Source: a phage. Taken from it: a stretch of 42,242 bases of DNA. The notes beneath the pieces are model-generated. The model saw nothing but the letters and a program-made list of their open reading frames with translations. It was not told where the DNA came from and ran no database searches. Positions 9,690 through 41,234 of the stretch are shown here, piece by piece. The position numbers were made by a program, and so were the translations under genes. The stretch lies in sequence record PX871047.1; one strand, given 5' to 3'. Position 1 is the stretch's first letter; the number at the start of each line of letters is the position of its first letter.

Positions 9690-9705
9690 AACTATTCGAA
9701 TAGTT
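9690..9705. repeat. perfect 16-bp palindrome AACTATTCGAATAGTT
   Basis: Self-complementary; same half-site (GAATAGT) as the promoter dyads but in inverted arrangement; abuts -35 of promoter 9704-9732. Confidence 0.6.
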
Positions 9706-9732
9706 GACTTTTCACTAAAAATATGATAAGCT
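9704..9732 (+). promoter_or_regulatory. promoter of ORF-less element, copy 1
   Basis: TTGACT - 17 nt - TAAGCT with TGn extended -10; same arrangement at 40955-40983. Confidence 0.45.
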
Positions 9733-9738
9733 CCACCT

Positions 9739-9940
9739 GAGCTTGTGAAGTATGAACAAGCGACCGCGGCGCGGGCAGGTAACGGAGCGGGACGTAAGTC
9801 CTGAGTGTAGTTACGCTGACGCGTTCGGAAGGGCCGTACCCTATTGCTTGTGTAAAAAGTAACTGGTTTACTGAGATTACGCCGTTTCTATGTTTAAATG
9901 ATAAGGACTAGCGCCCCGCTTTATGGCGGGGCTTTACTTA
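9739..9940 (+). ncRNA. candidate ORF-less structured transcript (putative sRNA or leader), copy 1
   Basis: No conserved ORF; 5' hairpin GCTTGT/ACAAGC (9741-9761); conserved block 9802-9835; terminal hairpin GCCCCGC/GCGGGGC (9913-9932) followed by TTTACTT; paralog at 40990-41234. Confidence 0.35.
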
Positions 9941-9956
9941 TCGAGAAAGGAGAAAC

Positions 9957-10343
9957 ATGAATCTTAAAGCAACTGTCGTAGCGGGGGCATGTTTCATCAT
10001 CCTGGCTTACGCACACGGCATCTACCAGTACCGCAGCGGCTGGAACGAAGGCCGGGCTAATCTAGCTTCACAGCAACAGCGGAAAGCACAGACCGAGTTA
10101 GCGAAGAAAACACAACGGCAGCAGCAGGACGAATCGAAGGCCGCGGCCGCTGACAACGAAGGCAAGACGAAATCAGAGGTAATTACCCGTGAAGTCGTTA
10201 AGTACATTAAAACGCCTGGCCGCAGCGTGTGCACTTTCGACGATGCTCGCGTCCTGCTCAAGTCCCGCGCCGTCACCAACGCCAATTCCATCCCCGGATA
10301 CGACAATGATGCAGCCGCCGTGCAAGCTGGCACCGCCAAGTAG
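9957..10343 (+). CDS. i-spanin (Rz-like)
   Basis: N-terminal TM segment then Gln/Lys/Glu-rich region; contains out-of-frame lipoprotein ORF. Confidence 0.6.
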   Translation: MNLKATVVAGACFIILAYAHGIYQYRSGWNEGRANLASQQQRKAQTELAKKTQRQQQDESKAAAADNEGKTKSEVITREVVKYIKTPGRSVCTFDDARVLLKSRAVTNANSIPGYDNDAAAVQAGTAK

Positions 10344-10452
10344 CGACGCGGACGAGGATTTGGCTATCGACGTTCAGAACGCCGAATGCGTACGGCAACT
10401 GAGACTGAAAGTGTTCATGTTGCAGGATTACGTGAGGAATATTCTGGAATAG
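10189..10452 (+). CDS. o-spanin (Rz1-like lipoprotein), overlapped architecture
   Basis: GTG start; signal peptide with lipobox LAS-C; Pro-rich mature part; starts inside Rz-like ORF in another frame and extends past its stop. Confidence 0.55.
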   Translation: MKSLSTLKRLAAACALSTMLASCSSPAPSPTPIPSPDTTMMQPPCKLAPPSSDADEDLAIDVQNAECVRQLRLKVFMLQDYVRNILE

Positions 10453-10534
10453 TTGCCTTGCATGTTGGAATAATTTATTCTTGACATGTAAATCCGGGTG
10501 GCCCGGGTTCCAACGTCCAGGGGACATACTGACT

Positions 10535-11236
10535 ATGAATCGTTTTTTACGTTATCCGTTCCAGGAAGAAGCTGGGGCAGAAGATAAAGCCGGTGGCGGT
10601 GGCGCACCGAAAATGTTCACCGCTGAAGAAGTTCAGGCGCTGATTGAGAAAGAAGTCGCCGGGCTTAAGGCTAATCAGGAAGCGTTGCTGGCGGAGAAGA
10701 AAGAAGCCGCTCGCAAAGCAAAAGAGGCCGAAGAAGAACGGCAGCGCGCACACCAGGAGGCGTTAAAAGCCGCTGGTAAGATGGACGAGTTCGAAAAAAC
10801 GATTCGTAGCCAGTATGACCCGGTGTTAGCCGAGAAAGATGGTCGCATCTCCAGAATGGCAGAGCGCATCCTCGGCAGCGAACGTAAAGCGGTGTTAGGC
10901 TCTTTCGCGGGTGACTTTATCACCCCGGAAGCAGTGGACATCCTGGCTCCGTTCGTTAAGACTGAGTTTGAAGGCGATGACGTGGTTACTAAGTTTGTCG
11001 GCGCAGACGGCAACGTAATCACGACTGACCCGGAACAGTTCCGCAAATACCTGCGTGAACACAAAGCGTTTTCGCATTTGATTAAAGCAAATGCAGCTTC
11101 CGGCGGCGGGGCTTCCGGTAGCAAAGGCGGCGGGGCCGCACCAGCGTTTAAAGACATGAGCGAAGCGGAGCGTTTAGCTCTGTATAAATCGAACCCTGCC
11201 GAATTTGAACGGCAACTTAAAGCCCTGAGGAAATAA
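10535..11236 (+). CDS. scaffolding protein (putative)
   Basis: Ala/Glu/Lys-rich coiled-coil-like sequence immediately upstream of major capsid gene; ATG 10535 (track ORF begins 10481). Confidence 0.55.
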   Translation: MNRFLRYPFQEEAGAEDKAGGGGAPKMFTAEEVQALIEKEVAGLKANQEALLAEKKEAARKAKEAEEERQRAHQEALKAAGKMDEFEKTIRSQYDPVLAEKDGRISRMAERILGSERKAVLGSFAGDFITPEAVDILAPFVKTEFEGDDVVTKFVGADGNVITTDPEQFRKYLREHKAFSHLIKANAASGGGASGSKGGGAAPAFKDMSEAERLALYKSNPAEFERQLKALRK

Positions 11237-11238
11237 TA

Positions 11239-12288: not shown

Positions 12289-12304
12289 GGTTAAGCTATA
12301 ATCG

Positions 12305-12333
12305 AGAGGGACTTCGGTCCCTCTTTTCATTTA
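12305..12333 (+). terminator. intrinsic terminator
   Basis: GAGAGGGAC / GTCCCTC stem with TTCG loop followed by TTTTCATTT. Confidence 0.7.
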
Positions 12334-12347
12334 CTAAGAGGTAAATT

Positions 12348-12647: not shown

Positions 12648-12659
12648 AGGAGCTTAAAA

Positions 12660-13013: not shown

Positions 13014-13049
13014 TACAACGGCCCTTCGGGGCCGTAATAAGGAAAGGTC

Positions 13050-13229: not shown

Positions 13230-13232
13230 TTT

Positions 13233-16695: not shown

Positions 16696-16700
16696 AACTA

Positions 16701-16723
16701 AGGCCCCGAAAGGGGCCTTTTTC
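16701..16723. terminator. bidirectional intrinsic terminator
   Basis: AGGCCCC / GGGGCCT stem, GAAA loop, TTTTCT; near-identical to terminator at 29235. Confidence 0.7.
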
Positions 16724-19304: not shown

Positions 19305-19345
19305 GGTGTAGCTCCTGTTTGAGTTAACATTGTTGGTGTAAGTGA

Positions 19346-19374
19346 ATAGTATCCTATTATGTTGGGGTGTGCAA
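19346..19374 (-). promoter_or_regulatory. promoter with embedded AATAG-N4-CTATT dyad (type A)
   Basis: Minus strand TTGCAC - 17 nt - TACTAT; 33-bp block 19342-19374 identical to reverse complement of 41273-41305. Confidence 0.6.
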
Positions 19375-23981: not shown

Positions 23982-24497
23982 ATGAGCCAGGAATCAGTAG
24001 AAGCCGCCTATCGCCGCAAGCTGGCCTCAAATCCCGACGGCGAACTGGACTACATTACTCTTGAAATAACGCACCCGCTTCTCTCGAAGCGGTGGTTGCT
24101 TGTGCGCGGGACGTCTGACCTGACGGCAACGTTAGAGACCGGAGAAGTAGTTACGTTTGAGGCCACACCAATGGAGGCTAAAGGGGCCGCCAACAATAAC
24201 GACATGGACCAGCGGTCGTCGTTCGCATTACCTGATATTGGTAACCAGTTAGATGATGAGATGGACAGGATACCACCGGATAATACGGTGTTGCCTAAGT
24301 TTATATTCCGCCGTTTCGTCAGCACAGACTTAACCTATCCAGCGGATGGGCCTGTTGTTTACGAATTGCAGTCGATAAACCAGGAAAAGGGGATATTCAC
24401 AGCTGACGTCGGCGTCCCTATGTTGAACCAAAGAGCCACCGGTGAACTAATGACCCCTTCGGTAATCCCATTGTTGCGTGGTGTTTTGTCTACATGA
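23982..24497 (+). CDS. minor tail protein
   Basis: Tail-tip cluster position. Confidence 0.4.
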   Translation: MSQESVEAAYRRKLASNPDGELDYITLEITHPLLSKRWLLVRGTSDLTATLETGEVVTFEATPMEAKGAANNNDMDQRSSFALPDIGNQLDDEMDRIPPDNTVLPKFIFRRFVSTDLTYPADGPVVYELQSINQEKGIFTADVGVPMLNQRATGELMTPSVIPLLRGVLST

Positions 24498-24859: not shown

Positions 24860-27402
24860 TATTACATTACACCCGTAACGAAGACGGTACTTTTGACCGC
24901 AAACGGTATAACGTACCTCCGATGGAATACGTCGTTGCTAACATCCCAGACGGGGTACCTGTGCGTATTTACCGCGGCGAGATTGGTGATGATACAGACG
25001 TAACGGAAAACTTCGAAGCGCTGAAAGAAGATGACGTTTTCCATATCATCGAGGGCGCTGGCGGCGGTGGTGGTTTTCTTGGTAAACTCCTGGACCCTTT
25101 GGGTGTGCTTAAATTTGTTACCAAGTTGATTTCTCCGTCGCAGAAAACGCCTAAAACGAGTTTAGCGAACCAGCAGGCGGAGTCTCCAAACAACAGCCTG
25201 ACGGACCGAAACAATAAACCGCGTCCGTATGAACGGTCGTATGATATTTGCGGCAGGGTCCAGACTATCCCTAATGACCTCATGACTACGTATAAGGTCT
25301 TCAATGACGCAGGTGTGGTAGTCGAATACGGCTACTATGACGCCGGTCGTGGGTATCTTGATATTAAAGCCGAAGACATCACCGACGGCGATACTAAAGT
25401 GCAGGAGATTACAGGAACTTCTGTAGCGGTATACGCCCCATTTACATCCCCTAACAATACAAATACGCCTCAGCTTCTGGTGGGGGACCCTATCAATCAG
25501 AATCTGTACATAACTATTGCCTCGAACGAGGTAGATGGGGCCGTTCTTAAAGCGCAGAACGATATCAGGGTTAATCCCAGTGATACCGGTGAGATTTCAT
25601 TGCAGGGGGCAACTGGTGTCGTCCGCGATAACACTGGCGACTCTGCTTTCTCTGAGATTTTATCGGTTGGGGACATAGCTGTTTTTAACCTTATTCTGGT
25701 AAAAGACGTGGCTAACGTCAGTGGTAGCTATACTGTTACATACGTAGATGACTTTGAGGTAAGAGTAGCCGCCGGAGGGGTGTTGTCAGAATGGCAAAAA
25801 TTGCCATCGGGGTTCACTCCTTTAACGCAAGGTACCGAAGCATGGATTTCACCGTCGAACACTTACGATAAGTCGTTAACGGACTGGACTACTTTAAACC
25901 GCCTGGAAGTTGAACGCGTAGTAGCCAACATCGCGGCCGCGAATGGTATGTATAAAGACAACGGCAGTAAATTGCGCACGTCGGTAACTGTCGAGCTTCA
26001 GTATCAACTCCTTGATGAAACTGGCGTGCCGTACGGGGATGTTTACTCAAAACAGGCCGTTATATCAGGTCGTTCTGCGGATTACACAGGTGTTACTATT
26101 TACGCCGACTTGCCCATGCGGTCGAAAGTTAGGGTACGGGCCCGCCGTGTTACTAACCTTGACCTTAGTTTCGAGGGGACCGTGGTAGACGAGGTTTCCT
26201 ACATCAACCTTTATGGGCAGGTACGCGACACTACACCGCATTACGGCAACCGTACTACCGTGCACTCCGCACGTAAGCAGACGCCGCGGGCCGCGGAGAT
26301 TAAGCAGCCGCAACTACGTATGGTTGCCACAGAGATGGTGTACAAATACCTCGGCAACGGCGTATTCGACACGGTTATGACACCGAATACTCAGGCGATT
26401 CAGTCCTTAATCCGTCTTGCCCGCGACCCGGTAGTAGGTAATCTCAACCTAACCACATCCAATATGGACAAGTTGTTAGCGACTCAGAACGAGATAGAAA
26501 ACTATTTCGGTAACGCAGAGGCTGGTCAATTCTGCTACACTTTTGACGATTATAAAATGACTATGCAGGACATAATCAGCACAATAGCCGACGCTATTTT
26601 CTGCACACCATATCGTAAAGGGCAAGACATATTACTGGATTTCGAGCGCCCTCGTATGGGGCCGGAGATGGTATTCACCCACCGCAGCAAAACTACCGCG
26701 GCGGAGAAGTGGACGCGCACGTTTAACGACGCACAGGTATACGATAGTCTCAAGTTTTCATACATCGACCCAGATACTAACGTCAAAGAGACTATTAGCA
26801 TCCCGGCCGAAGGAGGTGTTAATACCGAAACGTACGACTCTAAGGGTATCCGTAACTATCGACAGGCGTACTGGGCAGCTTATCGACGTTACCAGAAAAA
26901 CTTGTTGAAGAAAGTCACGGTGTCCTTTACGGCGACAGAAGAAGGAGTTTTTGTGCTGCCTGGTCGCGCAATAAGCGTCGTTAAAGGTTCGCGCGTAGCG
27001 CCTCAAGACGGCTATGTTGTTGCCGTTAATGGTCTTACTCTGACTTTATCACAGCCGGTTACTTTTACCCCCGGAGACGACCACTCATTGATTCTTAAGA
27101 AGCGTGACGGTGGTGTTCAAAGTGTTGCCGTTGTGCCCGGAAGCCACGACCGTGAAGTGGTTATGCTCTCTGCGCCTCAGGAGGCGATATACACAGGGAA
27201 TAGCGCACTAAAAACTGAGTTTTCATTCGGCAACGAAGCAAGGCATAATGCTCAGATGATTCTTGTTTCTACAGTTGACCCTGGAGACGACAGAACGGTT
27301 AAGATTACTGGGATTAACTACGAAGCAGATTTCTATAAATACGACGGCGTCGCACCTTTCGGTAGCGGTTTCTCCGGCGGATTCAGCAACGGTTTTAGTT
27401 AA
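24850..27402 (+). CDS. tail tip / central tail fibre protein (putative)
   Basis: Large ORF in tail-tip cluster; TTG at 24850 after GGAGAT; alternative ATG 24922; track ORF begins 24775. Confidence 0.5.
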   Translation: MALILHYTRNEDGTFDRKRYNVPPMEYVVANIPDGVPVRIYRGEIGDDTDVTENFEALKEDDVFHIIEGAGGGGGFLGKLLDPLGVLKFVTKLISPSQKTPKTSLANQQAESPNNSLTDRNNKPRPYERSYDICGRVQTIPNDLMTTYKVFNDAGVVVEYGYYDAGRGYLDIKAEDITDGDTKVQEITGTSVAVYAPFTSPNNTNTPQLLVGDPINQNLYITIASNEVDGAVLKAQNDIRVNPSDTGEISLQGATGVVRDNTGDSAFSEILSVGDIAVFNLILVKDVANVSGSYTVTYVDDFEVRVAAGGVLSEWQKLPSGFTPLTQGTEAWISPSNTYDKSLTDWTTLNRLEVERVVANIAAANGMYKDNGSKLRTSVTVELQYQLLDETGVPYGDVYSKQAVISGRSADYTGVTIYADLPMRSKVRVRARRVTNLDLSFEGTVVDEVSYINLYGQVRDTTPHYGNRTTVHSARKQTPRAAEIKQPQLRMVATEMVYKYLGNGVFDTVMTPNTQAIQSLIRLARDPVVGNLNLTTSNMDKLLATQNEIENYFGNAEAGQFCYTFDDYKMTMQDIISTIADAIFCTPYRKGQDILLDFERPRMGPEMVFTHRSKTTAAEKWTRTFNDAQVYDSLKFSYIDPDTNVKETISIPAEGGVNTETYDSKGIRNYRQAYWAAYRRYQKNLLKKVTVSFTATEEGVFVLPGRAISVVKGSRVAPQDGYVVAVNGLTLTLSQPVTFTPGDDHSLILKKRDGGVQSVAVVPGSHDREVVMLSAPQEAIYTGNSALKTEFSFGNEARHNAQMILVSTVDPGDDRTVKITGINYEADFYKYDGVAPFGSGFSGGFSNGFS

Positions 27403-27414
27403 AGAGGACTCTAT

Positions 27415-29229
27415 ATGTCAAGCGGATGCGGTGACGTTTTAAGCCTGGCGGATTTACAAACCGCCAAGAAACACCAGATTTTCGAAGCCGAGGTTATCAC
27501 CGGTAAATCCGGCGGCGTTGCTACGGGTGCCGATATTGATTACGCAACCGATGCTGTTACAGGGCAAACCCAGAAAACACTCCCCGCCGTGTTGCGTGAT
27601 GCCGTATTTACTCCGGTTGCGTGGGATTTCTCTACAGGCGGTACGTTAACAGTTAATGACCGCAACAAAGTGGTTTATGACCCGGTGAGCAAAACGTGGT
27701 ACTCGTATGCAGGTACGTTGCCGGTTGTTGTCCCGGCATCGTTTAACCCGGTTGGTAATGCTAACTGGAAGCCACAGACCGACCCTGACTTACGACAGGA
27801 TTTAGCGGCTACTACCGCGCAGAAAGGAGCAAGCCTTGTCGGATATAAATCACCAGTAGCAGGCTCCGTAGCTACGACCTTGCAGTCAAAAGAATCGGAA
27901 TACGTCTCTGTGTATGACTTCGGGGCGAAAGCTGAACCCGGATTTGATAATGCCACGGCATTTGCATTAGTAAAAACTGCCGCGGAAGCAGGTATTACAA
28001 TTTTGTTCCCAGCTGGGACTTATGAAACATCATCCGAGCTTACATTCACGTCAGCAGTTAAACTTGTGGGTATGCCTGGTACACGTATTAAGATAACTGC
28101 ACCAGGAAAAGCTCATGTCATGTGCATTGACCTTCGCGGCCCAGTTGGTGATTACTGGGGTTACGGGGTGCACCTGGAAAACTTCATTCTTGACGGTAAT
28201 GGTAATGCGGTAGATGGATTATCTCTGCGCGGTGTTATCTCATCACGCTTTGTTAATATACGTGCTACTAACGTTACTCGTGCCGGTTTACATCGTTGGT
28301 GGACTCAATTATGTACCTTTGAGAATTTCCAGTGCTCATCTAACGTTGAAGCATTTACTACTACACCTGTTTACGGAATCCTCACTGACTGTGAGTTTGA
28401 TACCGGAAATGACCGTGGAAGCTCTGCAGATACGATTACTAACCCAGAAATAGAGCATGTATCCGGTACAGGCATATGTGGGGTGTTTGAGTCAAACTCC
28501 GTATACATAAACGGTACATCTGAAGGTAATAATATCGGAATAGCTTTCGGTAATACTGATAGCCGAAACCAGTCTGTTAGTAATACTGTAATAGGTATGG
28601 ACCTTGAGGTTAACACGGCTACAGATATTCTACTTTATTCGAACACCTATGCTAACGACTTCATTGGTTTGAAGGCAGGATATAACTCTCCTAGCATCCA
28701 GGTACAAGGTTCTTTTGGGAATAAGTGGCTTGGCGGTTCATGTGCTGGTATTGATTTTTATAGCGAGTCCCATGATAACAGAGTGTATGGTGTTTCACTG
28801 TTAGGCGAGGGGGCTGTAATAACAGATGCGGGGAGCCGCAACAAATACACTGATTGTTTTAATATTTCTACAGCAGCGGTCTCTGTATCAACAAACCCTT
28901 ACCCAAACCGCGGTAATAATGTTCTTGCTGCGAATGCCACCGCAACGATTGACCCTTACCGAGATAATCTTACTGTTGTTACCGCAACAAGTAGCCCTAT
29001 TAATATTGTGTCCTCAACTACACCACTGGACGGCGCAAGAATGGATTTGGTAATCCATAATAAAACTGGGTCGGATACCTTAGTTATCAACTGGTCTTCT
29101 GCGTTCAGGGTTGCTGGTTTTACAGCCCCCGCTGCCGGGAGACATCGTGGTATTTCCCTGGTCTATGATGCCAACTATGGCTACTGGTGTGTTGTTGGGA
29201 TGGCAACGGCTGACGCAGTTAGCGTATAA
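27415..29229 (+). CDS. tailspike / receptor-binding depolymerase with right-handed beta-helix fold
   Basis: VSVYDFGAKAEPGFDNATAFALVKTAAEAGITILFPAGTY resembles N-terminus of pectate-lyase-type beta-helix domains; AAAGAGGA RBS. Confidence 0.6.
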   Translation: MSSGCGDVLSLADLQTAKKHQIFEAEVITGKSGGVATGADIDYATDAVTGQTQKTLPAVLRDAVFTPVAWDFSTGGTLTVNDRNKVVYDPVSKTWYSYAGTLPVVVPASFNPVGNANWKPQTDPDLRQDLAATTAQKGASLVGYKSPVAGSVATTLQSKESEYVSVYDFGAKAEPGFDNATAFALVKTAAEAGITILFPAGTYETSSELTFTSAVKLVGMPGTRIKITAPGKAHVMCIDLRGPVGDYWGYGVHLENFILDGNGNAVDGLSLRGVISSRFVNIRATNVTRAGLHRWWTQLCTFENFQCSSNVEAFTTTPVYGILTDCEFDTGNDRGSSADTITNPEIEHVSGTGICGVFESNSVYINGTSEGNNIGIAFGNTDSRNQSVSNTVIGMDLEVNTATDILLYSNTYANDFIGLKAGYNSPSIQVQGSFGNKWLGGSCAGIDFYSESHDNRVYGVSLLGEGAVITDAGSRNKYTDCFNISTAAVSVSTNPYPNRGNNVLAANATATIDPYRDNLTVVTATSSPINIVSSTTPLDGARMDLVIHNKTGSDTLVINWSSAFRVAGFTAPAAGRHRGISLVYDANYGYWCVVGMATADAVSV

Positions 29230-29234
29230 AACTA

Positions 29235-29260
29235 AGGCCCCGTCTGGGGCCTTTTTTTTT
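29235..29260. terminator. bidirectional intrinsic terminator
   Basis: AGGCCCC / GGGGCCT stem followed by eight T; A-rich upstream. Confidence 0.8.
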
Positions 29261-29398
29261 CTACTCTTCTGATAACTTCTCCAGTACAAACGCCAGTTGC
29301 GCGTTGGCGGCGTCTCTTTGCTGCCGTAATCGTAGGACCTCTTCTTCAAGTTCCTTGATACGTTTTTGCAATGCTGGAATCGGGGCTATGATGTTCAT
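29261..29398 (-). CDS. hypothetical small coiled-coil protein (45 aa)
   Basis: ATGA coupling to upstream gene; ends at terminator; below track cut-off. Confidence 0.35.
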   Translation of the reverse strand: MNIIAPIPALQKRIKELEEEVLRLRQQRDAANAQLAFVLEKLSEE

Positions 29399-29580
29399 TT
29401 CTTACCTTCGCTTTTCTTGAAACTGCGCTTTATATCCGGCGGAGTGTAGCATCGTGAATTTTCGTACTTACCGTCCGAGCTTACCAAAACAAAGCTGTTG
29501 CCGTCTTTTGATATGTACTCGATGGTGAAAGTATTGAATGAATGTACGCTGTATATTTCGTCTCCAACATTAAGTTTCAT
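29395..29580 (-). CDS. hypothetical protein
   Basis: Track ORF, coupled to helicase gene. Confidence 0.45.
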   Translation of the reverse strand: MKLNVGDEIYSVHSFNTFTIEYISKDGNSFVLVSSDGKYENSRCYTPPDIKRSFKKSEGKK

Positions 29581-31007
29581 TTCTTACTCCTACGTTTCAT
29601 GTAATTAAGCAGCTCTTCCTGTACAGATTTCTTCTCATCTGTACGCGCGGCAACAACCTCGTCCAGCGTGTCTTTAGCAACGATGTGATAGAGAAACACC
29701 GGGCGCTCGTGGCCTGCCTGTTTCTGGCGGACCGGGCCTATACGCTCGACAACCTGCAAATAGTGCTCAAGGTTCCAGCCTTGCGAGATGAACGCCAGAT
29801 GATGTCCGCCATCCTGTAAATTCAAACCATGCCCGGCTGACGCAGGGTGTACGCATAAGATTTCTATTTCGCCGCGGTTCCACGCTTCCATCTGCTTATT
29901 ACCCTTAGCACCTTTGGCAAACGCCTGTGCTTGCGGGAATCGTTTAAGGATGCGCTCCAGTTCGTGCTTGAACTGATAGGCTACCAGTAGCGGCGCGCCC
30001 TGTAACTCCTCAACAATTGACTCCAGCGCATCCAGTTTCGTGTCGTGCACTTTCTCCCAGTCTTTTGTCGCTTCTCCGTCTGGTCCCGACACATATACGG
30101 CACCGGATGCAATCTGCAAACACTTCGACGTCTTCGCTGCCGCGTTAGCTGCCTCAACTTCTCCGCTCTCCAGTTCCGCAAATAACTTCTCCTCCATATC
30201 TATGTACGCCTGACGCGCTTTCTTCGGCAGGTCGATTTCAACAGGTACGATAACCGGCGCTTCGCATCCGAACCACTCAGCGGCGTCAATCGTGAGACTG
30301 ATGTCCTTCATCTTCTGGTGGATTTCAGTATCCGCACCCGGGCGGGCGTGGTACTCACGTGCCATAGCCGATTTGCCTTTTTGCACCGAGTTAAACCAGC
30401 GGTCGGTGAATGCCGTGTACGATGAACCAAGTCGCTCGCCTGCGTCGATAAACCAGTTCTGCCCCCACAGGTCTTTGAGGCCGTTTGGCGACGGCGTACC
30501 TGTCAGGTTAATGAACCGCTTAACCTTGCCGAACGCCACTTTGCTGAGTGCCTTCGCGCGCTTGCTGCCGCCAGAACGGCTACGGAAAGATTTAAGTTTC
30601 GTGCTTTCATCGGCAACGATAACCGTAAAAGGCCAGTCGTCTTTGCCGTAGTAGTCAATCAGCCACTCGATAACTTCGTAGTTCGTACACACTACGTTAG
30701 CATCCGACTCCAGCGCCGCGATGCGGCGCTTCTCTGAACCAGTCGCATCGACGACACGCAGACAAGGGAAGTTCCAACGTGCCTGTTCCGCGGGCCACGT
30801 ACCTGACGCAACACGTAAAGGGGCAAGAATTAACACTCGGTCGTCGTCATTAAGTTGCCCATTACGGAACAGTCGATTGAGAACCCACAACGTTGACCCC
30901 GACTTGCCGCTGCCCATCGAAGCCCAAATATTACAGCGAGGGTGCCGCAGCATGAACGAAGTCATGAGCTTTTGGTACTCTCGACGGATAAATTTAGACA
31001 TAATCAA
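29577..31007 (-). CDS. SNF2/DEAD-like superfamily 2 helicase
   Basis: Walker A MGSGKSGST, motif II VADEST, C-terminal helicase-C-like region. Confidence 0.7.
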   Translation of the reverse strand: MIMSKFIRREYQKLMTSFMLRHPRCNIWASMGSGKSGSTLWVLNRLFRNGQLNDDDRVLILAPLRVASGTWPAEQARWNFPCLRVVDATGSEKRRIAALESDANVVCTNYEVIEWLIDYYGKDDWPFTVIVADESTKLKSFRSRSGGSKRAKALSKVAFGKVKRFINLTGTPSPNGLKDLWGQNWFIDAGERLGSSYTAFTDRWFNSVQKGKSAMAREYHARPGADTEIHQKMKDISLTIDAAEWFGCEAPVIVPVEIDLPKKARQAYIDMEEKLFAELESGEVEAANAAAKTSKCLQIASGAVYVSGPDGEATKDWEKVHDTKLDALESIVEELQGAPLLVAYQFKHELERILKRFPQAQAFAKGAKGNKQMEAWNRGEIEILCVHPASAGHGLNLQDGGHHLAFISQGWNLEHYLQVVERIGPVRQKQAGHERPVFLYHIVAKDTLDEVVAARTDEKKSVQEELLNYMKRRSKK

Positions 31008-31198
31008 CCCTTAACGTAGAGCACCAGCTCTTTACGCCCGAACGCCGTAACGTTACCCGTTACATCTTCGATAACCAGTTTACCGTTCGACTCGACGAAC
31101 ACCGTATCAACGGCAACCGGACGTCGGGTCTTAACGTTGAAAATCATGTCGCCCGGTACGATGTCACGTGCGGGTTTGCGGTCATATTCGTGTTTCAT
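31004..31198 (-). CDS. hypothetical protein
   Basis: Track ORF, ATGA-coupled to helicase. Confidence 0.45.
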   Translation of the reverse strand: MKHEYDRKPARDIVPGDMIFNVKTRRPVAVDTVFVESNGKLVIEDVTGNVTAFGRKELVLYVKG

Positions 31199-31237
31199 TT
31201 CTCAATTCCTTATAGTTAAGGCCCCGAAGGGCCTGTA

Positions 31238-31492
31238 TTAGTTAGATAATTCGCCTTGAACTTGCTTAATAAGTTCTCTGGCCGTTGTGAAGTCTACGGA
31301 CAGCCCTTTAGCGACGTCTTCCGCAAGCACCTTGTGGCCAACTGACCCGAAGCCCAGGATACGGTTTACTTCCGAAACCTTCATAGACCATGAGTAATTA
31401 ACTGACGCCCCTGTGTATTTACCGATACGAACAGATGAATCGATTGAACCAATAATCATGGTGTTTACTGACAGTTGAAGTTCGATAGCCAT
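31238..31492 (-). CDS. hypothetical protein
   Basis: Track ORF with own consensus promoter 31527-31555. Confidence 0.5.
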   Translation of the reverse strand: MAIELQLSVNTMIIGSIDSSVRIGKYTGASVNYSWSMKVSEVNRILGFGSVGHKVLAEDVAKGLSVDFTTARELIKQVQGELSN

Positions 31493-31493
31493 T

Positions 31494-31808
31494 TTATAAT
31501 TCCTTATATTGTTGAGGTATGTGCTTACTATAATAGTCTGCTATTAGGGTGTCAATCTGTTTTATCGAACCAACGACAAAAACATTCGCGCCACGTTTAC
31601 GCATCCGCTCGTGCTCGCGTAACTGGTGTGGGTCTGGCTTCGTGCTTTCATCTTTCTTAACCTCAACGAACCAGATGATGCCGCCGGGGAGGATTACCAA
31701 CAGGTCGGGCGCTCCGTTTCGGCCCTCATACACTATCTTACGAACGAGGCCCCCCAGGGCCTCGAATCGGTCTTTCGCGTATTTCTGTACGCGGCCCTCT
31801 TTAGTCAT
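31494..31808 (-). CDS. VRR-NUC domain nuclease
   Basis: GAPDLLVILPGG..WFVEVK...QL pattern typical of VRR-NUC; ATG 31808 coupled to upstream micro-ORF (track ORF begins at TTG 31823). Confidence 0.6.
   Translation of the reverse strand: MTKEGRVQKYAKDRFEALGGLVRKIVYEGRNGAPDLLVILPGGIIWFVEVKKDESTKPDPHQLREHERMRKRGANVFVVGSIKQIDTLIADYYSKHIPQQYKEL
31527..31555 (-). promoter_or_regulatory. promoter with embedded AATAG-N4-CTATT dyad (type B)
   Basis: Minus strand TTGACA - 17 nt - TATAGT; dyad 31532-31545. Confidence 0.6.
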
Positions 31809-31957
31809 GGGCGTAGAACCCAAGTAAGGAAAGCCCCTCCTAGAACGGCAACACCGACAAACTTAAAGAACAGGCCATAACAGAACATCGTGGCTATTCC
31901 CGCCCCGAGTAACAGTGCAAGCATGGTTACTATTGCCCAAAATACAAACATTGTCAT
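31805..31957 (-). CDS. small membrane protein (50 aa)
   Basis: GAGGGG before ATG; two hydrophobic segments; ATGA-coupled at both ends. Confidence 0.4.
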   Translation of the reverse strand: MTMFVFWAIVTMLALLLGAGIATMFCYGLFFKFVGVAVLGGAFLTWVLRP

Positions 31958-32043
31958 AATACACACCCCTCACGTTTCGTGTGCTCAATCCCGCAGCGCG
32001 GACAGATTCGACAGTCTTCTTCATAGAACCAGTAGATTTTCAT
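31954..32043 (-). CDS. Cys-rich micro-protein (29 aa)
   Basis: MKIYWFYEEDCRICPRCGIEHTKREGCVL; ATGA-coupled at both ends. Confidence 0.3.
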   Translation of the reverse strand: MKIYWFYEEDCRICPRCGIEHTKREGCVL

Positions 32044-32171
32044 TCCAGCACCCACAGATAAATTGCGATGAACATACCTAATACGGCTACAATCATGCCG
32101 TATTGGCCCTCGTGACAGTAGACACCGGCGGCAAATCCCGCCAGTACTGTGATAATCAGTTTACTTAGCAT
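32040..32171 (-). CDS. small membrane protein (43 aa)
   Basis: Start overlaps 3' end of polymerase gene; hydrophobic; ATGA-coupled downstream. Confidence 0.35.
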   Translation of the reverse strand: MLSKLIITVLAGFAAGVYCHEGQYGMIVAVLGMFIAIYLWVLE

Positions 32172-34434
32172 AACGGTACACCTCTCCCCCAGCCCATGTT
32201 AACGGGAACCCTTCGGCCCACTCAGGTAATGAGCATAGCAGGTCACCCATCTCTTTAACCGTGTACTCTGGCGTGTCTGGCGTTTCGGCAACACATTCGT
32301 CATGTACGTGGAGTACAATTGGGTAGCCCGCCGCCTCGACCGTCAGGAGTCCGTTAACCAGTAAATCACGGCACAACGCCTGGATGATGTTTTCACACAA
32401 TTTTCCGCCGTGTGTGTACAAAGTTGTCCACTGGCGGGTGGTCTGATTTTCGCCCTGGTATTTAATGCGAACGTTAGTTGTTACACGCCCGTCCTCGTCG
32501 GTCTCTTTAGTGACGCTTAAGCCTATGCCAGGGTAGGACATGATGCGCCCCGACGGCAGCTCCACGCACAACCACCAACCTGGCACAAAGTTACCTTGTC
32601 TGTCTTTCTCCTTAGTACGCCAGATGCGAATAGCTCTGTCGCCGTTGGGGCGGACTCTGGCCCCCGCCCAAAACTCTCGTCCCGGATTTCTAATTGCAGC
32701 AATCACCGAATCCTTAAGGTCGTTCCAGAATTTCACTGTTTCCGGATGGGCCTCACGCCACATGCGCTTGATAGCATCGCAAGTGCGCCAGACTTCTTTA
32801 GGCAGCACATAAGAGGCCCGTTCATCCTTTTTACCGGGTTTTGGGGGCCGCTTAGCCTCCTGAATCCGCGCCCATTCATAGCCTCGGGCAGTGGCGGCCC
32901 ATATATGGTCAGGGAATGTTCCCCGCATTGTCTCCGTCATTTTAAAGAGGTCCAGCCCGTAAGTTTTAGCCATAGTCATGAAGGCCCCCACGCCCCCCTC
33001 GTAGCCGAGGCCGAGCTCGCAACATTTCCCGACCTGTCGCAGGTCTTTACGGGTGGCTTTCAGTTCTATGGGGTCCATACCAAACATCTTGCCCGCAGTG
33101 GCGCAATAAATATCAATCCCCGCGCGGAACGTCTCAAGCGCGGATGTCTCCCCCGCGGTCCAGGCCAACCCGCGCCCTTCTACGTTTGAGTAGTCGGCAA
33201 CGAGCAACTTATTACCCTTTTCAGGGATGATGCAACTGCGAACAGTCGAGGCTGTCAGCTTGGATACGTCGAAACGACGGTGCGCCCGACCCTTTAGCAG
33301 CAGATTGATGCCGAACGATAGGGGGTTGAGACGACGGTTCCAGTCTTCGTCGGACTCCCACGGCTGGCGCACAAGTTTCTTTTCCTCGTTAGTCGGGTCG
33401 TCGTGGTAGTACCCGCGCGACAGGTTCTGCGGTTGGAACCCTTTACCCGCAAATCGTAAAGTGCGCTTTGCCCCACCGTACTGGATGCAACCGCGGCGGC
33501 GGCCGTCTTTGGACCGTCCTAGCAGGAGCGGTTTGTATTTTGTCGACGCCGTGGAGGCCGCGCCGAGGCGCATCTCAATGATTGTGCGCGCATCGTCAGG
33601 TAAGTCGTCGTCCTCTAGCAAACCTTCGAGCGTTGCTTTCTGTGCATTATAGATATTGTAGGCCGGTGCCAGCTCCCGAAGGATTGGCAGGAAGTCTTTA
33701 CCCGTTAGCTTCCCGCCAAATTTAGCCCTGGCCTCGTTTTTTAGCTCTTGCTTGTGGCGTTCAACTGCTGCTACCGCCGCCTCAGCAAGAGCCGCATCAA
33801 CAAAGAAGCCTCGGTCGTTGATTAACTGGTCAAGTTCAAGTACACGGTCCTCGAAATCGGAGTTACCCCAACGTGGCAGCTTATGGAAGACTTCACGCAT
33901 CGCTGTGATGTCGCTCACGGCATACTTGATGAACAGGGCCCACTCGTCAGGGTGAGTTTCTGCGGTGTAGCGGCGGATTTTGTAGTTCTTCGGCGTCGGT
34001 TTAGAGAAACGCTTAATCAGCGCCTTGCCGCGTTTATCTTTTGCATTGTCGGCGGATACGCCCAGCACTTCGCACAATGCGTCAAGTGACCCCGGCAGCG
34101 CGTGACGAAACGCCCAAATCATCGTATCAATGGTGTTGCTTACCGGAATATCAAAGTCCCAGCAGTGCTTCATGACGAGCCTGTCGAACATTGAGCCGTT
34201 GTGCCACACCATCTTAATACGACTGTTTGGCTTAACCAGGCGGCGCAAGGCGCGATGCAAATCCCCCGGCATGTCGCTGCCGTCAGTGCAGTCCCATACC
34301 TGAACAGGCTCGTCATCAAAAGCATAGGTGCAGATGAGCACTTCGGTAGTCGGGTGTTCGGCGTAAGCATAGGAGCCGACTTTCTTCAAATCGGCTTCGG
34401 AGAAGGTTTCAAAGTCTAAGAACAGATAACTCAT
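32161..34434 (-). CDS. DNA polymerase, family A, with 3'-5' exonuclease domain
   Basis: Exo motif LFLDFETFS; pol motifs DYSNVEGR, K...LGLGYEGG, VHDECV. Confidence 0.85.
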   Translation of the reverse strand: MSYLFLDFETFSEADLKKVGSYAYAEHPTTEVLICTYAFDDEPVQVWDCTDGSDMPGDLHRALRRLVKPNSRIKMVWHNGSMFDRLVMKHCWDFDIPVSNTIDTMIWAFRHALPGSLDALCEVLGVSADNAKDKRGKALIKRFSKPTPKNYKIRRYTAETHPDEWALFIKYAVSDITAMREVFHKLPRWGNSDFEDRVLELDQLINDRGFFVDAALAEAAVAAVERHKQELKNEARAKFGGKLTGKDFLPILRELAPAYNIYNAQKATLEGLLEDDDLPDDARTIIEMRLGAASTASTKYKPLLLGRSKDGRRRGCIQYGGAKRTLRFAGKGFQPQNLSRGYYHDDPTNEEKKLVRQPWESDEDWNRRLNPLSFGINLLLKGRAHRRFDVSKLTASTVRSCIIPEKGNKLLVADYSNVEGRGLAWTAGETSALETFRAGIDIYCATAGKMFGMDPIELKATRKDLRQVGKCCELGLGYEGGVGAFMTMAKTYGLDLFKMTETMRGTFPDHIWAATARGYEWARIQEAKRPPKPGKKDERASYVLPKEVWRTCDAIKRMWREAHPETVKFWNDLKDSVIAAIRNPGREFWAGARVRPNGDRAIRIWRTKEKDRQGNFVPGWWLCVELPSGRIMSYPGIGLSVTKETDEDGRVTTNVRIKYQGENQTTRQWTTLYTHGGKLCENIIQALCRDLLVNGLLTVEAAGYPIVLHVHDECVAETPDTPEYTVKEMGDLLCSLPEWAEGFPLTWAGGEVYRYAK

Positions 34435-35183: not shown

Positions 35184-35212
35184 AATATAATAGCTAACTA
35201 TTCAGGTGTCAA
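35184..35212 (-). promoter_or_regulatory. promoter with embedded AATAG-N4-CTATT dyad (type B)
   Basis: Minus strand TTGACA - 17 nt - TATATT; dyad 35189-35202. Confidence 0.6.
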
Positions 35213-37200: not shown

Positions 37201-37220
37201 AATTCCGACCCTCAGTTAAA

Positions 37221-37236: not shown

Positions 37237-37243
37237 GGGATAG

Positions 37244-37708: not shown

Positions 37709-37739
37709 TATTTATTCTCCTCTCGTTTGGTATGTGCCA

Positions 37740-37768
37740 ACTATAATAGCGAACTATTCACTTGTCAA
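37740..37768 (-). promoter_or_regulatory. promoter with embedded AATAG-N4-CTATT dyad (type B)
   Basis: Minus strand TTGACA - 17 nt - TATAGT; dyad 37745-37758. Confidence 0.65.
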
Positions 37769-37832
37769 TGGGCTTTTCTAAAATAATTAATATGGTACTA
37801 TTCACATATCAACTAACTAAGGAGTAATTGAC

Positions 37833-38048: not shown

Positions 38049-38064
38049 CGCCCCTTTCTTTTTA
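38038..38064. terminator. bidirectional intrinsic terminator
   Basis: AAGGGGC / GCCCCTT stem followed by TCTTTTT. Confidence 0.6.
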
Positions 38065-38065
38065 C

Positions 38066-40333: not shown

Positions 40334-40391
40334 GTGTATATTCCTTCAGCAAGTAATTTAGCCTCGGCGTTCACCGCGTCGGGGCTTTCTT

Positions 40392-40682
40392 TTAACGTTT
40401 AGCCAGACATTCCATTAAATGTGAATATTTTCTGTAATAGCAAGGAACTAAATCACACCCAAAATAATGATAAACATAAGCCAAGTGGTCAGTAACATCT
40501 ATAGCGGCTGACATTGTGCTAAGACGGCGAAGGCTAATCAACTGTAATTCTTCCGTAATGCAAAATGGTTCATACGTATCAAGTTTGCAAGAAACGTTAA
40601 AACACAGAGCATAGCCGTCTTGTGCGGAGTAGACCAGAAATGCGCTGTCGTTCTCTTTATCGTGAAAAATTACACCTTTCAT
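40392..40682 (-). CDS. hypothetical protein
   Basis: Track ORF; AAGGAGA RBS; AT-rich. Confidence 0.45.
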   Translation of the reverse strand: MKGVIFHDKENDSAFLVYSAQDGYALCFNVSCKLDTYEPFCITEELQLISLRRLSTMSAAIDVTDHLAYVYHYFGCDLVPCYYRKYSHLMECLAKR

Positions 40683-40849
40683 TTCACATTCTCCTTAACC
40701 CACGCTTCTACTTTATTTCGGTCAAACGTACCCGGCATACGGCGGCCCATTACTTTAACGCTGCAATCAGGAAACTTCCCGCTTTTAATCCAGTTATTTA
40801 TTGTCTGACGAGTAACTCCGATTAATTCTGCAACCTCGTTTATAGTCAT
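40679..40849 (-). CDS. AlpA/excisionase-family HTH regulator (putative)
   Basis: MTINEVAELIGVTRQTINNWIKSGKFP; AGGAGA RBS; ATG 40849 (track ORF begins 40939). Confidence 0.55.
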   Translation of the reverse strand: MTINEVAELIGVTRQTINNWIKSGKFPDCSVKVMGRRMPGTFDRNKVEAWVKENVK

Positions 40850-40878
40850 TTCACGATCTCCTGTGTAAGATGTAGTGA

Positions 40879-40907
40879 AGTATAAAGCGGTAACTTTGTA
40901 AAAGCAA
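40879..40907 (-). promoter_or_regulatory. promoter of replication operon
   Basis: Minus strand TTGCTT - 17 nt - TATACT. Confidence 0.5.
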
Positions 40908-40954
40908 CCAAAACAACACACAAAGCCACTAAGATACAAAAGATGCTACTGGGA

Positions 40955-40983
40955 TTGACTTTTACTTAAAAATGTGCTAAGCT
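40955..40983 (+). promoter_or_regulatory. promoter of ORF-less element, copy 2
   Basis: TTGACT - 17 nt - TAAGCT with TGn; paralog of 9704-9732. Confidence 0.45.
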
Positions 40984-40989
40984 TCACTG

Positions 40990-41234
40990 AGCTTGTGAGA
41001 TATCGCAAGCGACCGCGGAGCGGCAGGGAACGCAACGCGTGCCATTAGGCACTTGAGTGTAGTTCCGCTGGCGCTTTCGGAAGGGCCAAAGTCTATTGTT
41101 AATCCCGCCTAAATACCCAAGTCACTGATAATTAAAGTTTCTATAGTTGCCGTAAGCGAGGTAGAGAGTACTTCACTCCGCTGTGGTGGGCTAACGCCCA
41201 CCCACTGCGTTGCGTACTCTTTTAAGAAACGAAA
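40990..41234 (+). ncRNA. candidate ORF-less structured transcript (putative sRNA), copy 2
   Basis: No ATG-initiated ORF; 5' hairpin GCTTGT/GCAAGC (40991-41010); conserved block 41064-41097; nested terminal hairpins AGAGTAC...GGTGGGC/GCCCACC...GTACTCT then TTT. Confidence 0.35.

Follow-up and report, generated by a model that had tools for sequence, protein, structure and literature searches.

A folded non-coding RNA at the head of the capsid operon of Kagunavirus and Jerseyvirus phages

Leader RNAs that act on transcription

The closest described counterparts of the element analysed here are putL and putR of the lambdoid phage HK022, paralogous two-hairpin RNAs that are promoter-proximal, lie ahead of terminators, and act as factor-independent processive antiterminators (PMC9378689). 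They need no dedicated phage protein (PMC9378689). Put RNA binds the β′ zinc-binding domain of RNA polymerase, and in this way suppresses pausing as well as termination in cis. The nut sites of phage lambda are two paralogous RNA sites, one per operon, which lie downstream of promoters and make the polymerase terminator-resistant. The lambda late leader is a further arrangement: PR′ is a constitutive strong promoter immediately ahead of the late (lysis and structural) operon, and an RNA of about 200 nt (6S RNA) ends at the terminator tR′ unless the polymerase is modified, Q using DNA sites and a sigma-dependent pause. The RNase III hairpins of the T7 early mRNA and of the lambda N leader are irregular, 50–65 nt long, have an asymmetric internal loop, and occur in paralogous copies. 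Structured leader RNAs that bypass internal terminators, acting in cis and in an orientation-dependent manner, are EAR of the Bacillus eps operon, canT of Tn916 and conAn2 of pLS20 (PMC11658703).

The window (the whole stretch of 42,242 nt that was analysed) is a Kagunavirus genome. It contains two copies of a previously undescribed folded non-coding RNA, an element that is present in about 450 sequenced Kagunavirus and Jerseyvirus phages, and that we class as a new RNA family of a regulatory kind already known. Copy 1 is the 5′ leader of the spanin-scaffold-major capsid operon. Copy 2 is a paralog in the early region, at the head of a rightward early operon.

Organisation of the two copies

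The features of copy 1 and its surroundings are as follows, with the basis of each in brackets.

9606..9637, minus strand: predicted promoter/operator motif, divergent from copy 1, the same motif as at 41263..41291 (sequence)
9652..9703, no strand assigned: conserved DNA repeats 5′ of the promoter, comprising TATTCC twice, GGAATA and the palindrome CTATTCGAATAG (sequence)
9704..9732, plus strand: promoter, TTGACT - 17 nt - TG-n-TAAGCT, with an extended −10 (sequence)
9739..9835, plus strand: core RNA, consisting of P1, P2 and a tail (folding, covariance-model match, covariation)
9741-9761, plus strand: P1, a 5′ hairpin pairing GCTTGT 9741-9746 with ACAAGC 9756-9761 (folding)
9764-9828, plus strand: P2, a long irregular hairpin (folding)
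9836..9956, plus strand: 3′ part of the leader, up to the spanin gene (sequence, terminator scan, folding)
9913-9932, plus strand: terminator-like hairpin GCCCCGC-TTTATG-GCGGGGC with the tail TTTACTTAT (terminator scan)

The corresponding features of copy 2 are:

40955..40983, plus strand: promoter, TTGACT - 17 nt - TG-n-TAAGCT (sequence)
40989..41087, plus strand: core RNA, consisting of P1, P2 and the tail AAGGGCC (folding, covariance-model match, pair counts)
40991-41010, plus strand: P1, pairing GCTTGT 40991-40996 with GCAAGC 41005-41010 (folding)
41013-41080, plus strand: P2 (folding)
41088..41234, plus strand: 3′ module (sequence, folding)
about 41164-41221, plus strand: composite hairpin with the inner stem GGTGGGC/GCCCACC at 41185-41202 (folding)
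41263..41291, plus strand: predicted second promoter 3′ of copy 2, TTGCAC-17-TACTAT with the palindrome AATAG-N4-CTATT (sequence)

An earlier, sequence-only reading of this DNA had described both promoters correctly, including the TG one base 5′ of the −10 hexamer, and also the two 5′ hairpins, the stem of which extends to 8 bp in copy 2. From sequence only, the start sites are predicted at G9739/A9740 and G40989/A40990. In copy 1, P2 is built on a basal stem (CCG/CGG) and includes a bulged C and tandem G·U pairs; its internal loop is GGAG/AGUGUA and its apical stem CGGGAC-GUAA-GUCCUG. The core ends in a single-stranded tail, AAGGGCC. In copy 2 the lower stem of P2 differs by two compensated base-pair swaps, and the apical stem, GUGCC-AUUA-GGCAC, is wholly unlike that of copy 1.

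A near-identical block of 34 nt was reported to be shared by the copies. It occurs exactly twice in the window (chance expectation 0.00), although in copy 2 it is located at 41054-41087 rather than 41064-41097. The two copies had also been said to align along their full length. The 5′ 135 nt are truly shared, promoter and core together being 80% identical (111/138 aligned columns), as is a short GTTTCTAT(A)GTT block, but the 3′ parts are only 46% identical. A further motif described as common to both, GTTTCTATnGTT, is found in copy 2 only; the sequence in copy 1 is GTTTCTATGTTT, from which copy 2 differs by a 1-nt indel.

The 3′ part of the copy-1 leader contains a conserved YUAUUG motif (9841-9846), a second GCTTGT (9846-9851) that offers ACAAGC 9756-9761 an alternative partner to P1, and the ribosome-binding site of the spanin gene. 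In Jersey phage (L038:7390-7500) these parts follow one another in the same order. The 3′ module of copy 2 includes CUAUUG and GTTTCTATAGTT (41137-41148), and its composite hairpin is followed by TTTT at 41220-41223. Since phage K1G has this module without the core, it is a separable unit. A GC-rich terminal hairpin with a short T run had been attributed to each copy. Both hairpins are present, and that of copy 1 is the top terminator-like match in a scan of the window, but that of copy 2 fails the T-run rule of the scan. Only 24 nt separate the end of the copy-1 hairpin at 9932 from the spanin ATG at 9957, with no second promoter between them and no room for one. The overall order is promoter, structured RNA, terminator-like hairpin, genes, and then a strong terminator (12304-12325) located 3′ of the capsid gene and 23 nt ahead of the next gene.

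Upstream of copy 1, the palindrome CTATTCGAATAG adjoins the −35 hexamer, and the arrangement TATTCCAGTTATTCC...GGAATA is retained in Jersey phage; no such repeats are found upstream of copy 2. They are a possible binding site for a regulator. The palindromic motif TTGCAC-17-TACTAT occurs in seven copies in the window. That at 41263..41291 is predicted to drive the first early gene, at 41317, and that at 9606..9637 a small minus-strand ORF with its ATG near 9581.

Conservation, strand and coding capacity

The element in its copy-1 position is carried by 181 Kagunavirus-type records, and in a diverged form by 269 Jersey-type records. In Cornellvirus it has diverged further: the two hairpins are kept, and the conserved CCGCGG/UUCGGAAGGG base is absent. 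Copy 2 is present in about 40 genomes. A spanin at least 60% identical is found in 451 records, as against the 181 and 269 with the element, so that the two track each other nearly one to one. The arrangement of element followed by spanin is seen also in Bas70, K1G and Jersey. Each genome has one or two sites, all of them at promoters and none in the gaps between genes, and no host copy was found. Database records often annotate the element as a 'hypothetical protein', for example Bas70_0007 and Jersey gp08.

A covariance-model search, which the sequence-only reading had suggested as a check, recovers only the two sites in the window (copy 1, 144 bits, E=8e-39; copy 2, 110 bits, E=4e-29), and folding of both copies, likewise suggested, gives a common shape of P1 plus P2. 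All 20 of 20 sequence variants of P2 fold into one shape, and 13 of the 26 modelled pairs show changes on both sides. Of the cells that should be paired in P2, 96.4% are, compared to 31–43% when the partners are slid. The covariation score is 0.343 against 0.108 in shuffles, a value reached by 0/500 shuffles, and one pair occurs in three Watson-Crick forms (C-G, A-U and U-A). The element falls into five sequence types, in which the base is fixed and the apical stem is free: at least five unrelated, self-complementary sequences are found there, and the early-region copies vary in this stem as types B, C and D. The P2 base, CCG-C-GG.GC / GC.UUCGG, and the AAGGG of the tail are invariant across Kagunavirus and Jerseyvirus. 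The promoter hexamers and their 17-nt spacing are also kept in copy 2 and in the Jersey-type phages (TTGACT/TAGACT-17-TGnTACGCT), while the sequence of the spacer differs. The predicted start site of the Jersey-type phages falls within the 5′ arm of P1, and P1 is therefore perhaps not formed in all lineages.

Two G·U pairs are invariant, and the single substitutions seen keep the pair as a wobble (U-A to U·G, A-U to G·U). Such pairs and changes fit only one strand, and identify the RNA as the transcribed (plus) strand. That the element is non-coding and functional as RNA, as had been suggested earlier, is borne out by the uniform fold of P2, the covariation, the invariant G·U pairs and an ORF that is broken in relatives, and we regard a functional plus-strand RNA as very probable. 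The ORF of copy 1 that starts at 9752 has 36 codons plus a stop, rather than the 39 codons counted before, and is absent from copy 2 as claimed. It was rejected as a small protein gene: 1-nt indels shift its frame in the close relatives L021, L025 and L044, the ORF starts differ in types C, D and E, and copy 2 has only 16 codons. Copy 2 was said to have no ATG at all. This is correct for the predicted transcript, but there is one at 40972, inside the promoter spacer.

Comparison with known systems and possible functions

A search of Rfam 15 with the whole window gave no match at the gathering threshold, and relaxing this to E up to 10 for each element gave only chance matches to terminator hairpins (14–18 bits, against thresholds of 35–62). 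EAR, a published RNA family included in Rfam, was not matched in these scans of the window and elements. Nor did the covariance model (R1), run with filters off on HK022 24000-34000, which includes both put sites, give a match, and no alignable motif is common to the core and the putL/putR sequences. The likeness to put is one of architecture only. In both cases one genome has paralogs that lie 3′ of a sigma-70 promoter, in a long operon whose terminators come after them, and that consist of a neighbouring pair of irregular stem-loops, bulged and with internal loops (here P1 and P2 from +3); putL begins at the transcript start. Where putL has a −10-like hexamer in the initially transcribed region, the −10 hexamer is here repeated 3–5 nt downstream (TAAGCT then TGAGCT at 9727/9738 and 40978/40988, TACGCT then TACGCT in Jersey), the Kagunavirus repeat being without the key A at position 2. 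Unlike put, the core is about 95 nt rather than about 70 nt and has no sequence or structure homology to it, copy 1 heads a capsid (late-type) operon where put heads early operons, and the phages concerned are virulent Guernseyvirinae, not lambdoid phages.

The element resembles lambda nut in comprising two paralogous sites, one per operon, downstream of promoters. However, P2 is far larger than the 15-nt boxB, and there is no boxA (YGCTCTTWA, up to 1 mismatch) within 9704-9956 or 40955-41316; the count in the whole window equals chance expectation. The lambda late leader provides a parallel for the proposed behaviour and for the nature of the first gene after the leader, a lysis gene (here the spanin). 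It differs from this locus in that Q uses DNA sites, whereas here it is the RNA fold that is under selection. The repeated −10 hexamer is a doubtful candidate for a promoter-proximal, sigma-dependent pause element of the Q type. The annotations of four relatives (fFiEco02, Jersey, K1G and Bas70) include no Q- or N-like protein. PHROG scans of 10 neighbouring proteins found HTH regulators only, but over half of the small early proteins lack a functional assignment. EAR, canT and conAn2 are likewise structured RNAs in operon leaders, but they have Gram-positive hosts and resemble the present element neither in sequence nor in size (canT has 452 nt).

On balance, and tentatively, we favour a leader that acts in cis, in the manner of put or nut, to control whether polymerase reads through the leader's own terminator hairpin, with short terminated RNAs as the default. 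The order of parts and the architectural likeness to put favour this proposal. The lack of homology to put, the missing boxA, the overlap of P1 with the start site in Jersey-type phages and the loss of the P2 base in Cornellvirus count against it. Each element would be a transcription unit read by the host sigma-70 RNA polymerase from a strong promoter, with a structured core of about 95 nt from 2 nt after the start site, a weakly conserved spacer of 75–130 nt, and a GC-rich terminator-like hairpin. The core would act in cis on the very polymerase by which it was transcribed, either alone, like HK022 put RNA, or by loading a host or phage protein, like lambda nut. Transcripts from the promoter would then pass the leader hairpin and later terminators, such as that at 12304-12325 after the capsid gene, while the product of unmodified polymerase would be a short RNA, of about 195 nt from copy 1 and about 235 nt from copy 2. 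What the sequences show is the promoter, the RNA fold and its strand, the lack of coding capacity, the position and the conservation; termination at the hairpins, any effect of the core on read-through and the partner are inferred. The U-tracts speak against the hairpins being terminators, since they are poor (UUUACUUAU in copy 1, and UU only in the Jersey version), and this, with the failure of copy 2 in the terminator scan, means that the hairpins could be stabilising instead. RNA-seq of a phage of the same subfamily grouped capsid and tail genes with replication genes as 'middle' (PMC12645636), which fits constitutive read-through. The long and poorly conserved spacer between core and hairpin favours a distance-independent mechanism over a riboswitch-type switch. 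In the early region the core is dispensable, because copy 2 precedes another promoter (41263-41291), itself ahead of the first gene, and phages such as K1G have an early region with no core. A stronger form of the proposal is that the core represents a second class of RNA, of independent evolutionary origin, which without any protein binds the E. coli or Salmonella RNA polymerase during transcription and confers terminator resistance. This we consider unlikely, as we do its corollary, a put-like antiterminator of a whole virulent subfamily, driving the capsid operon and, in some phages, with a second copy in the early region.

The classic layout of an sRNA gene is likewise a promoter with a terminator, and this counts against a leader. 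The sequence-only reading took the copies for candidate small RNAs, each with its own promoter, and was right that the RNA is structured and non-coding. Copy 1, however, is an operon leader, inseparable from the capsid operon, and antisense matches in the phage genome do not exceed chance (longest match 13 nt, against 13–15 nt in shuffles). It is possible, though somewhat doubtful, that the terminated RNAs of 195–235 nt are themselves functional in trans, either pairing with mRNAs of the host or using the conserved P2 base and internal loop to titrate one of its proteins (an RNA-binding protein, nuclease or defence factor, for example). Read-through into the operon would then be incidental. 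In keeping with this, each unit has its own strong promoter and 3′ hairpin, and conservation is highest in a structured domain that presents sequence-specific unpaired motifs (AGUGUAG, AAGGGCC), which a protein-binding RNA would be expected to have; the copy in the early region of about 40 genomes, with a separate promoter for the genes that follow, resembles a stand-alone gene, and it is in this copy that the apical stem diversifies. On the other hand, the U-tails are short and poor for Hfq-type sRNAs, and with the 3′ halves unrelated any seed must lie in the folded core. The 24-nt gap from hairpin to ATG without a promoter, the same arrangement in relatives, the co-occurrence with the spanin, and the location of both copies upstream of, and co-oriented with, rightward multi-gene operons argue for a leader and not a free gene, and a cis-regulatory role is preferred because it fits this genomic context better. 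A discrete RNA of 195–235 nt may well accumulate as a terminated by-product. It is rather unlikely that the element serves mRNA stability or processing, P1 shielding the operon mRNA from 5′-end-dependent decay and P2 acting as an RNase III-type signal, so that together they set the half-life or translation of the capsid-operon mRNA. The 5′-terminal hairpin at +3 in Kagunavirus, the position ahead of the most highly expressed genes, and the form of P2 (about 24 bp, with a lower stem, an asymmetric 4/6-nt internal loop and a 6-bp upper stem) agree with such a role; we take this form to resemble phage RNase III sites of the T7 R1.1 type. But RNase III has little sequence specificity, and here the P2 base and AAGGG are invariant, cleavage of P2 would remove the protective P1, and the T7 and lambda hairpins lie between genes of polycistronic mRNAs whereas this element is only ever promoter-proximal. 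The early-region paralog, with its own following promoter, would also be left unexplained.

A riboswitch-like attenuator, in which the core binds a metabolite or ion and so switches the terminator on or off, is very unlikely. A conserved folded domain is indeed followed by a terminator-like hairpin upstream of genes, and ACAAGC 9756-9761 of copy 1 can pair with GCTTGT at either 9741 or 9846, but this alternative pairing is weak or absent in types B–E. The 3′ part of the core does not compete directly with an adjacent terminator: the spacer of 75–130 nt is poorly conserved, and there is no conserved helix that extends to the terminator and could compete with it. A single long hairpin makes up essentially the whole fold, without a multi-helix pocket, and Rfam gave nothing beyond chance matches even at E up to 10. 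Least probable of all, to the point of being scarcely credible, is an element that acts as DNA, whether as an origin, as a hairpin for single-strand initiation or as a packaging site, or else a gene for a small protein. The hairpins could also form in single-stranded DNA, but there the invariant G·U pairs and the wobble-type substitutions would correspond to no more than weak G·T pairs, and on the opposite strand to A·C mismatches, and the terminase small-subunit region, the usual location of pac, is elsewhere (about 4251-4838). As for a protein, the label 'hypothetical protein' is placed over the element in several records and a frame, ...AFGRA..YC..., is open in several types, but the copy-1 ORF has no ribosome-binding site. 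The conserved promoter exactly upstream also counts against this reading.

Kagunavirus and Jerseyvirus are among the phages most often isolated for therapy and for biocontrol of E. coli and Salmonella, and their gene control has so far been essentially unknown. The leader RNA is the most conserved non-coding feature found in this analysis of their genomes. Should it modify RNA polymerase, HK022 put would be the only earlier example of RNA-only antitermination in phages, and the new one would be unusually tractable, since its five natural sequence types already amount to a set of mutants. Should it prove to be a small RNA that binds protein, virulent phages would have a new kind of RNA for manipulating the host. 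On either reading it provides a new RNA family, and a handle of promoter, leader and hairpin for engineering expression in these phages.

Genomic setting of the two copies

Hundreds of complete Guernseyvirinae siphovirus genomes match either locus at 95–99% identity by BLAST, and the Kagunavirus genomes among them include K1G, K1H, Golestan and BASEL Bas70-76. The window is a single Kagunavirus genome, circularly permuted and laid out as follows.

Gene layout of the window
From ~41.3 kb, across the window ends, rightward: early region, leading to holins, endolysin, terminase and portal
To 9448, rightward: head morphogenesis genes and a Hoc-like protein
9704-9956, plus strand: copy 1 of the element
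After copy 1, to 29229, rightward: spanin, scaffold, major capsid and tail genes
12304-12325: predicted strong terminator, after the capsid gene and 23 nt ahead of the next gene
From ~40.9 kb, leftward: replication genes
40955-41234, plus strand: copy 2 of the element

Three near-identical palindromic hairpins (AAGGCCCC-N4-GGGGCCTT) also lie at operon boundaries (7576-7595, 16700-16719 and 29234-29253). Each scores as a terminator on the minus strand, and two of the three do so on the plus strand as well.

The sequence-only reading had described two paralogous elements, each with a promoter, a 5' hairpin, a 34-nt near-identical block and a terminal hairpin, and all of these are present in the sequence. 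The block occurs twice in the window, against 0.00 occurrences expected by chance, and a covariance model built from the elements matches the window at exactly copies 1 and 2 (E=8e-39 and 4e-29) and nowhere else. The copies are 80% identical over promoter and core, but only 46% over their 3' parts. A few details differ slightly from that description: the copy-2 block spans 41054-41087, the ORF that opens at 9752 is 36 codons long, and copy 2, said to have no ATG, has one at 40972, within the promoter spacer. A further shared block, 'GTTTCTATnGTT', is present in the region but is not identical, a 1-nt indel separating the copies.

Only 24 nt separate the end of the copy-1 hairpin (9932) from the spanin ATG (9957), which makes the promoter at 9704 that of the spanin-scaffold-capsid operon. 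Read from this arrangement, which is the same in K1G and Jersey, copy 1 is a predicted 218-nt leader of that operon and not a free-standing gene. The original observation holds, while its interpretation as a pair of small RNA genes is only partly supported. DNA repeats 5' of the capsid-leader promoter (9652-9703; TATTCCAGTTATTCC ... GGAATA) are common to Kagunavirus and Jersey (L038 7223-7274) and absent 5' of copy 2. They may be a candidate regulator binding site for this promoter.

Anatomy and conservation of the RNA

The predicted start sites, G9739 and G40989, are 6-7 nt past the extended -10 element. The 5' hairpin, P1, starts at +3 of the predicted RNA and folds with 6 bp in copy 1 and 8 bp in copy 2. 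A two-base linker separates it from P2, an irregular hairpin of 65-68 nt.

Parts of P2 and the sequence 3' of it
Base: CCG/CGG stem with a bulged C
Above the base: helix of 5-6 bp, the first two pairs G·U, then a small junction
Middle: CAG/CUG, a bulged G and a 5-bp helix
Internal loop, asymmetric: GGAG or GCAA on the 5' side, AGUGUA on the 3' side
Tip: apical stem of 5-6 bp and a 4-nt loop
3' of P2: single-stranded AAGGGCC, a YUAUUG motif, 75-130 nt of poorly conserved sequence and a GC-rich hairpin

The apical stems, CGGGAC/GUCCUG in copy 1 and GUGCC/GGCAC in copy 2, have no sequence in common and are both perfect helices. K-turn, sarcin-ricin and T-loop motifs were sought in the internal loop by eye only, and none fits. 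The terminal hairpins have weak U-tracts, and that of copy 2 fails a terminator scan. In Jersey-type phages the predicted start site overlaps the 5' arm of P1.

Two further features of the sequence are worth adding. A second GCTTGT (9846-9851), 3' of P2, can form 8 bp with ACAAGC(GA) and so enclose P2, as an alternative to P1 (9741-9761); the minimum-energy fold of copy 1 uses this pairing, and the same alternative is weak in other types. In addition, the -10 hexamer is repeated 3-5 nt downstream, as TAAGCT then TGAGCT in both copies (9727-9743 and 40978-40993) and as TACGCT then TACGCT in Jersey (L038 7298-7312), the third base shifting in both hexamers together. On sequence grounds the repeat could be a sigma-dependent pause element, or merely the 5' arm of P1.

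The same architecture is found in 20 of 20 distinct P2 sequences folded individually. In a model-guided alignment of 28 distinct sequences, 96.4% of the cells are paired, against 31-43% when the partners are slid, and 13 of 26 pairs show two-sided changes. The covariation score of this alignment is 0.343 against 0.108 in shuffles, with none of 500 shuffles reaching 0.343. Such an alignment leans towards the structure of its model, whereas the per-sequence folds do not depend on it. From a plain MAFFT alignment RNAalifold recovers the basal helix only, because MAFFT misaligns the variable apical part; in view of this poor structure-blind alignment, we rely on the other two approaches.

One P2 pair occurs in three forms (C-G, A-U and U-A), and two G·U pairs are invariant. 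All three variable positions of the near-identical block are informative, two being the 3' partners of compensated pairs (C-G to A-U and U-A to G-C) and the third lying in the junction. Type A itself shows single substitutions that are compatible with wobble pairing or lie in loops, the junction or the linker after GGGCC. The G·U pairs and wobble changes are tolerable only on the plus (transcribed) strand, and the element is therefore an RNA rather than a double-stranded DNA site.

A protein-coding reading was rejected, as three close relatives have 1-nt indels that break the ORF. No ribosome-binding site precedes this 36-aa frame, other types use different start codons, and the ORF shrinks to 16 codons in copy 2. 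Many records carry 'hypothetical protein' CDS features over the element, for example Bas70_0007 (L001 3152-3262) and Jersey gp08 (L038 7265-7456); since frames over the element are not conserved, these calls are probably spurious. The conserved tail also contains a Shine-Dalgarno-like GGAAGGG, ~10 nt 5' of the conserved UUG in YUAUUG (9827-9862 and 41079-41125). The frame opened by this UUG has 3 codons in copy 1, 10 in copy 2 and 6 in Jersey, and in types C and D (L052-L055) is a bare start-stop (UUG UAA). Cornellvirus has UUC in place of UUG, which argues against translation.

Distribution of the family

Pattern scans of IMG/VR yielded 54 loci, which fall into five sequence types.

Sequence types of the element
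Type A: spanin-leader copy of Kagunavirus; 181 GenBank records
Types B, C and D: early-region copies; two places in ~43 records
Type E: spanin-leader copy of Jersey-type Salmonella phages, at the same genomic spot (model E=1e-8); 269 records

Types A and E together account for ~450 records, matching the 451 records with a spanin at least 60% identical. Cornellvirus has a further diverged two-hairpin RNA in the same place (folding z-scores -4.2 and -4.5), in which the upper part of P2 is recognisably homologous (CAGG..CGGGCC-GUAA-GGCCUG..CUGA) and the base is different. As the conserved base is missing there, the 'invariant' motifs are lineage-wide and not subfamily-wide. The element is lacking in a Klebsiella phage whose spanin is distant and whose endolysin-spanin cassette is the usual one.

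A strict pattern scan of metagenomes gave 80 loci, mostly chance matches in GC-rich soil, of which 15 pass the model, all of known types. Among 100,044 species genomes there were eight pattern matches, two of which pass the model. Both come from non-enterobacterial assemblies, on short contigs of 0.7 and 6.2 kb, L185 (a MAG, 'Bacillota bacterium') and L186 ('Taishania pollutisoli', a 738-bp scaffold), which look like contamination, and we take the element there to be of phage origin. Blastn against 5,426 E. coli genomes found nothing similar. The single 'plasmid' match, CP088689.1 (E. coli, 44 kb), is a phage genome, apparently mislabelled. The DNA of these three records appears to come from Guernseyvirinae phages. 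Nothing relevant came out of Rfam, whether the whole window or each element by itself was scanned (E up to 10), and a prior description was not found in the literature on Guernseyvirinae. The element is a real, deeply conserved and previously undescribed family of structured RNAs.

Copy 2 lies in a divergent control region, with a leftward HTH gene on one side and the rightward early operon on the other; the order is core, hairpin, second promoter (41263-41291) and first gene. K1G keeps the copy-2 3' module and the second promoter but lacks the core and uses a different promoter. The core is thus a cassette that the early region can do without, and the capsid-leader copy is universal. In K1G (L039 36680-37030) the early promoter, TTGACA-17-TAAAAT, is followed by an inverted copy-1 terminator hairpin (AAGCCCCGCCATAAAGCGGGGCGCTA) and then by the copy-2 3' module, apparent evidence of modular shuffling of leader parts. 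Some genomes (L059 and L024, which are the same contig, and L121) combine the types: a type-D core stands between type-A flanks at the capsid-leader site, or promoter and core belong to different types. Their sequences suggest recombination or gene conversion between paralogous copies.

Each RNA element is also adjoined by one copy of a ~30-bp motif, with the palindrome AATAG-N4-CTATT inside sigma-70-like promoters (TTGCAC-17-TACTAT), which occurs seven times against 0.09 expected.

Copies of the AATAG-N4-CTATT motif
Minus strand: 7868-7886, 9606-9624 and 19343-19361
Plus strand: 35186-35204, 37742-37760, 37786-37804 and 41276-41294

The fBC-Eco01 paper gives the same consensus as seven 'phage RNA polymerase promoters' (PMC9825357). 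The four relatives examined have no annotated RNA polymerase gene, and from its sequence the motif looks like an operator of a phage HTH regulator.

Possible function

It is very probable that the element functions as a plus-strand RNA, transcribed from a sigma-70 promoter of its own. DNA-level or coding readings are contradicted by the strand-specific wobble pairs and the indels, and are highly improbable. What the RNA does is less certain. A trans-acting sRNA would fit the promoter-plus-hairpin form and the early-region copy, but it would leave unexplained why copy 1 is inseparable from the capsid operon, and antisense targets in the phage genome are not above shuffled controls; we consider it unlikely. 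Rather less likely again is a leader for stability or RNase III processing, which accounts for the 5'-terminal hairpin and the shape of P2 but not for the invariant sequence of its base. The long unconserved spacer and the single-hairpin fold speak against a riboswitch-type attenuator, which is improbable.

We slightly favour action in cis, as an operon leader, and put forward antitermination specifically as a tentative proposal. The polymerase would first make a sequence-specific folded RNA from a strong, constitutive-looking promoter, and would then meet an arbitrary spacer, next a terminator-like hairpin, and beyond it a long operon containing further terminators. By analogy, this layout is that of processive antitermination units. 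The nearest analogue is put of phage HK022, whose paralogous two-hairpin RNAs of ~70 nt, just 3' of promoters, make the polymerase terminator-resistant without a protein (PMC9378689). The likeness is architectural and, as proposed here, functional only: the covariance model has no match in the put region, and putL and putR, extracted and folded by hand, have no motif in common with the core. Unlike lambda nut, neither element contains a boxA, and no N- or Q-like protein is annotated in the relatives fFiEco02, Jersey, K1G and Bas70. Most plausibly, then, the element would act in cis as the capsid operon's leader, in the manner of an antitermination site.
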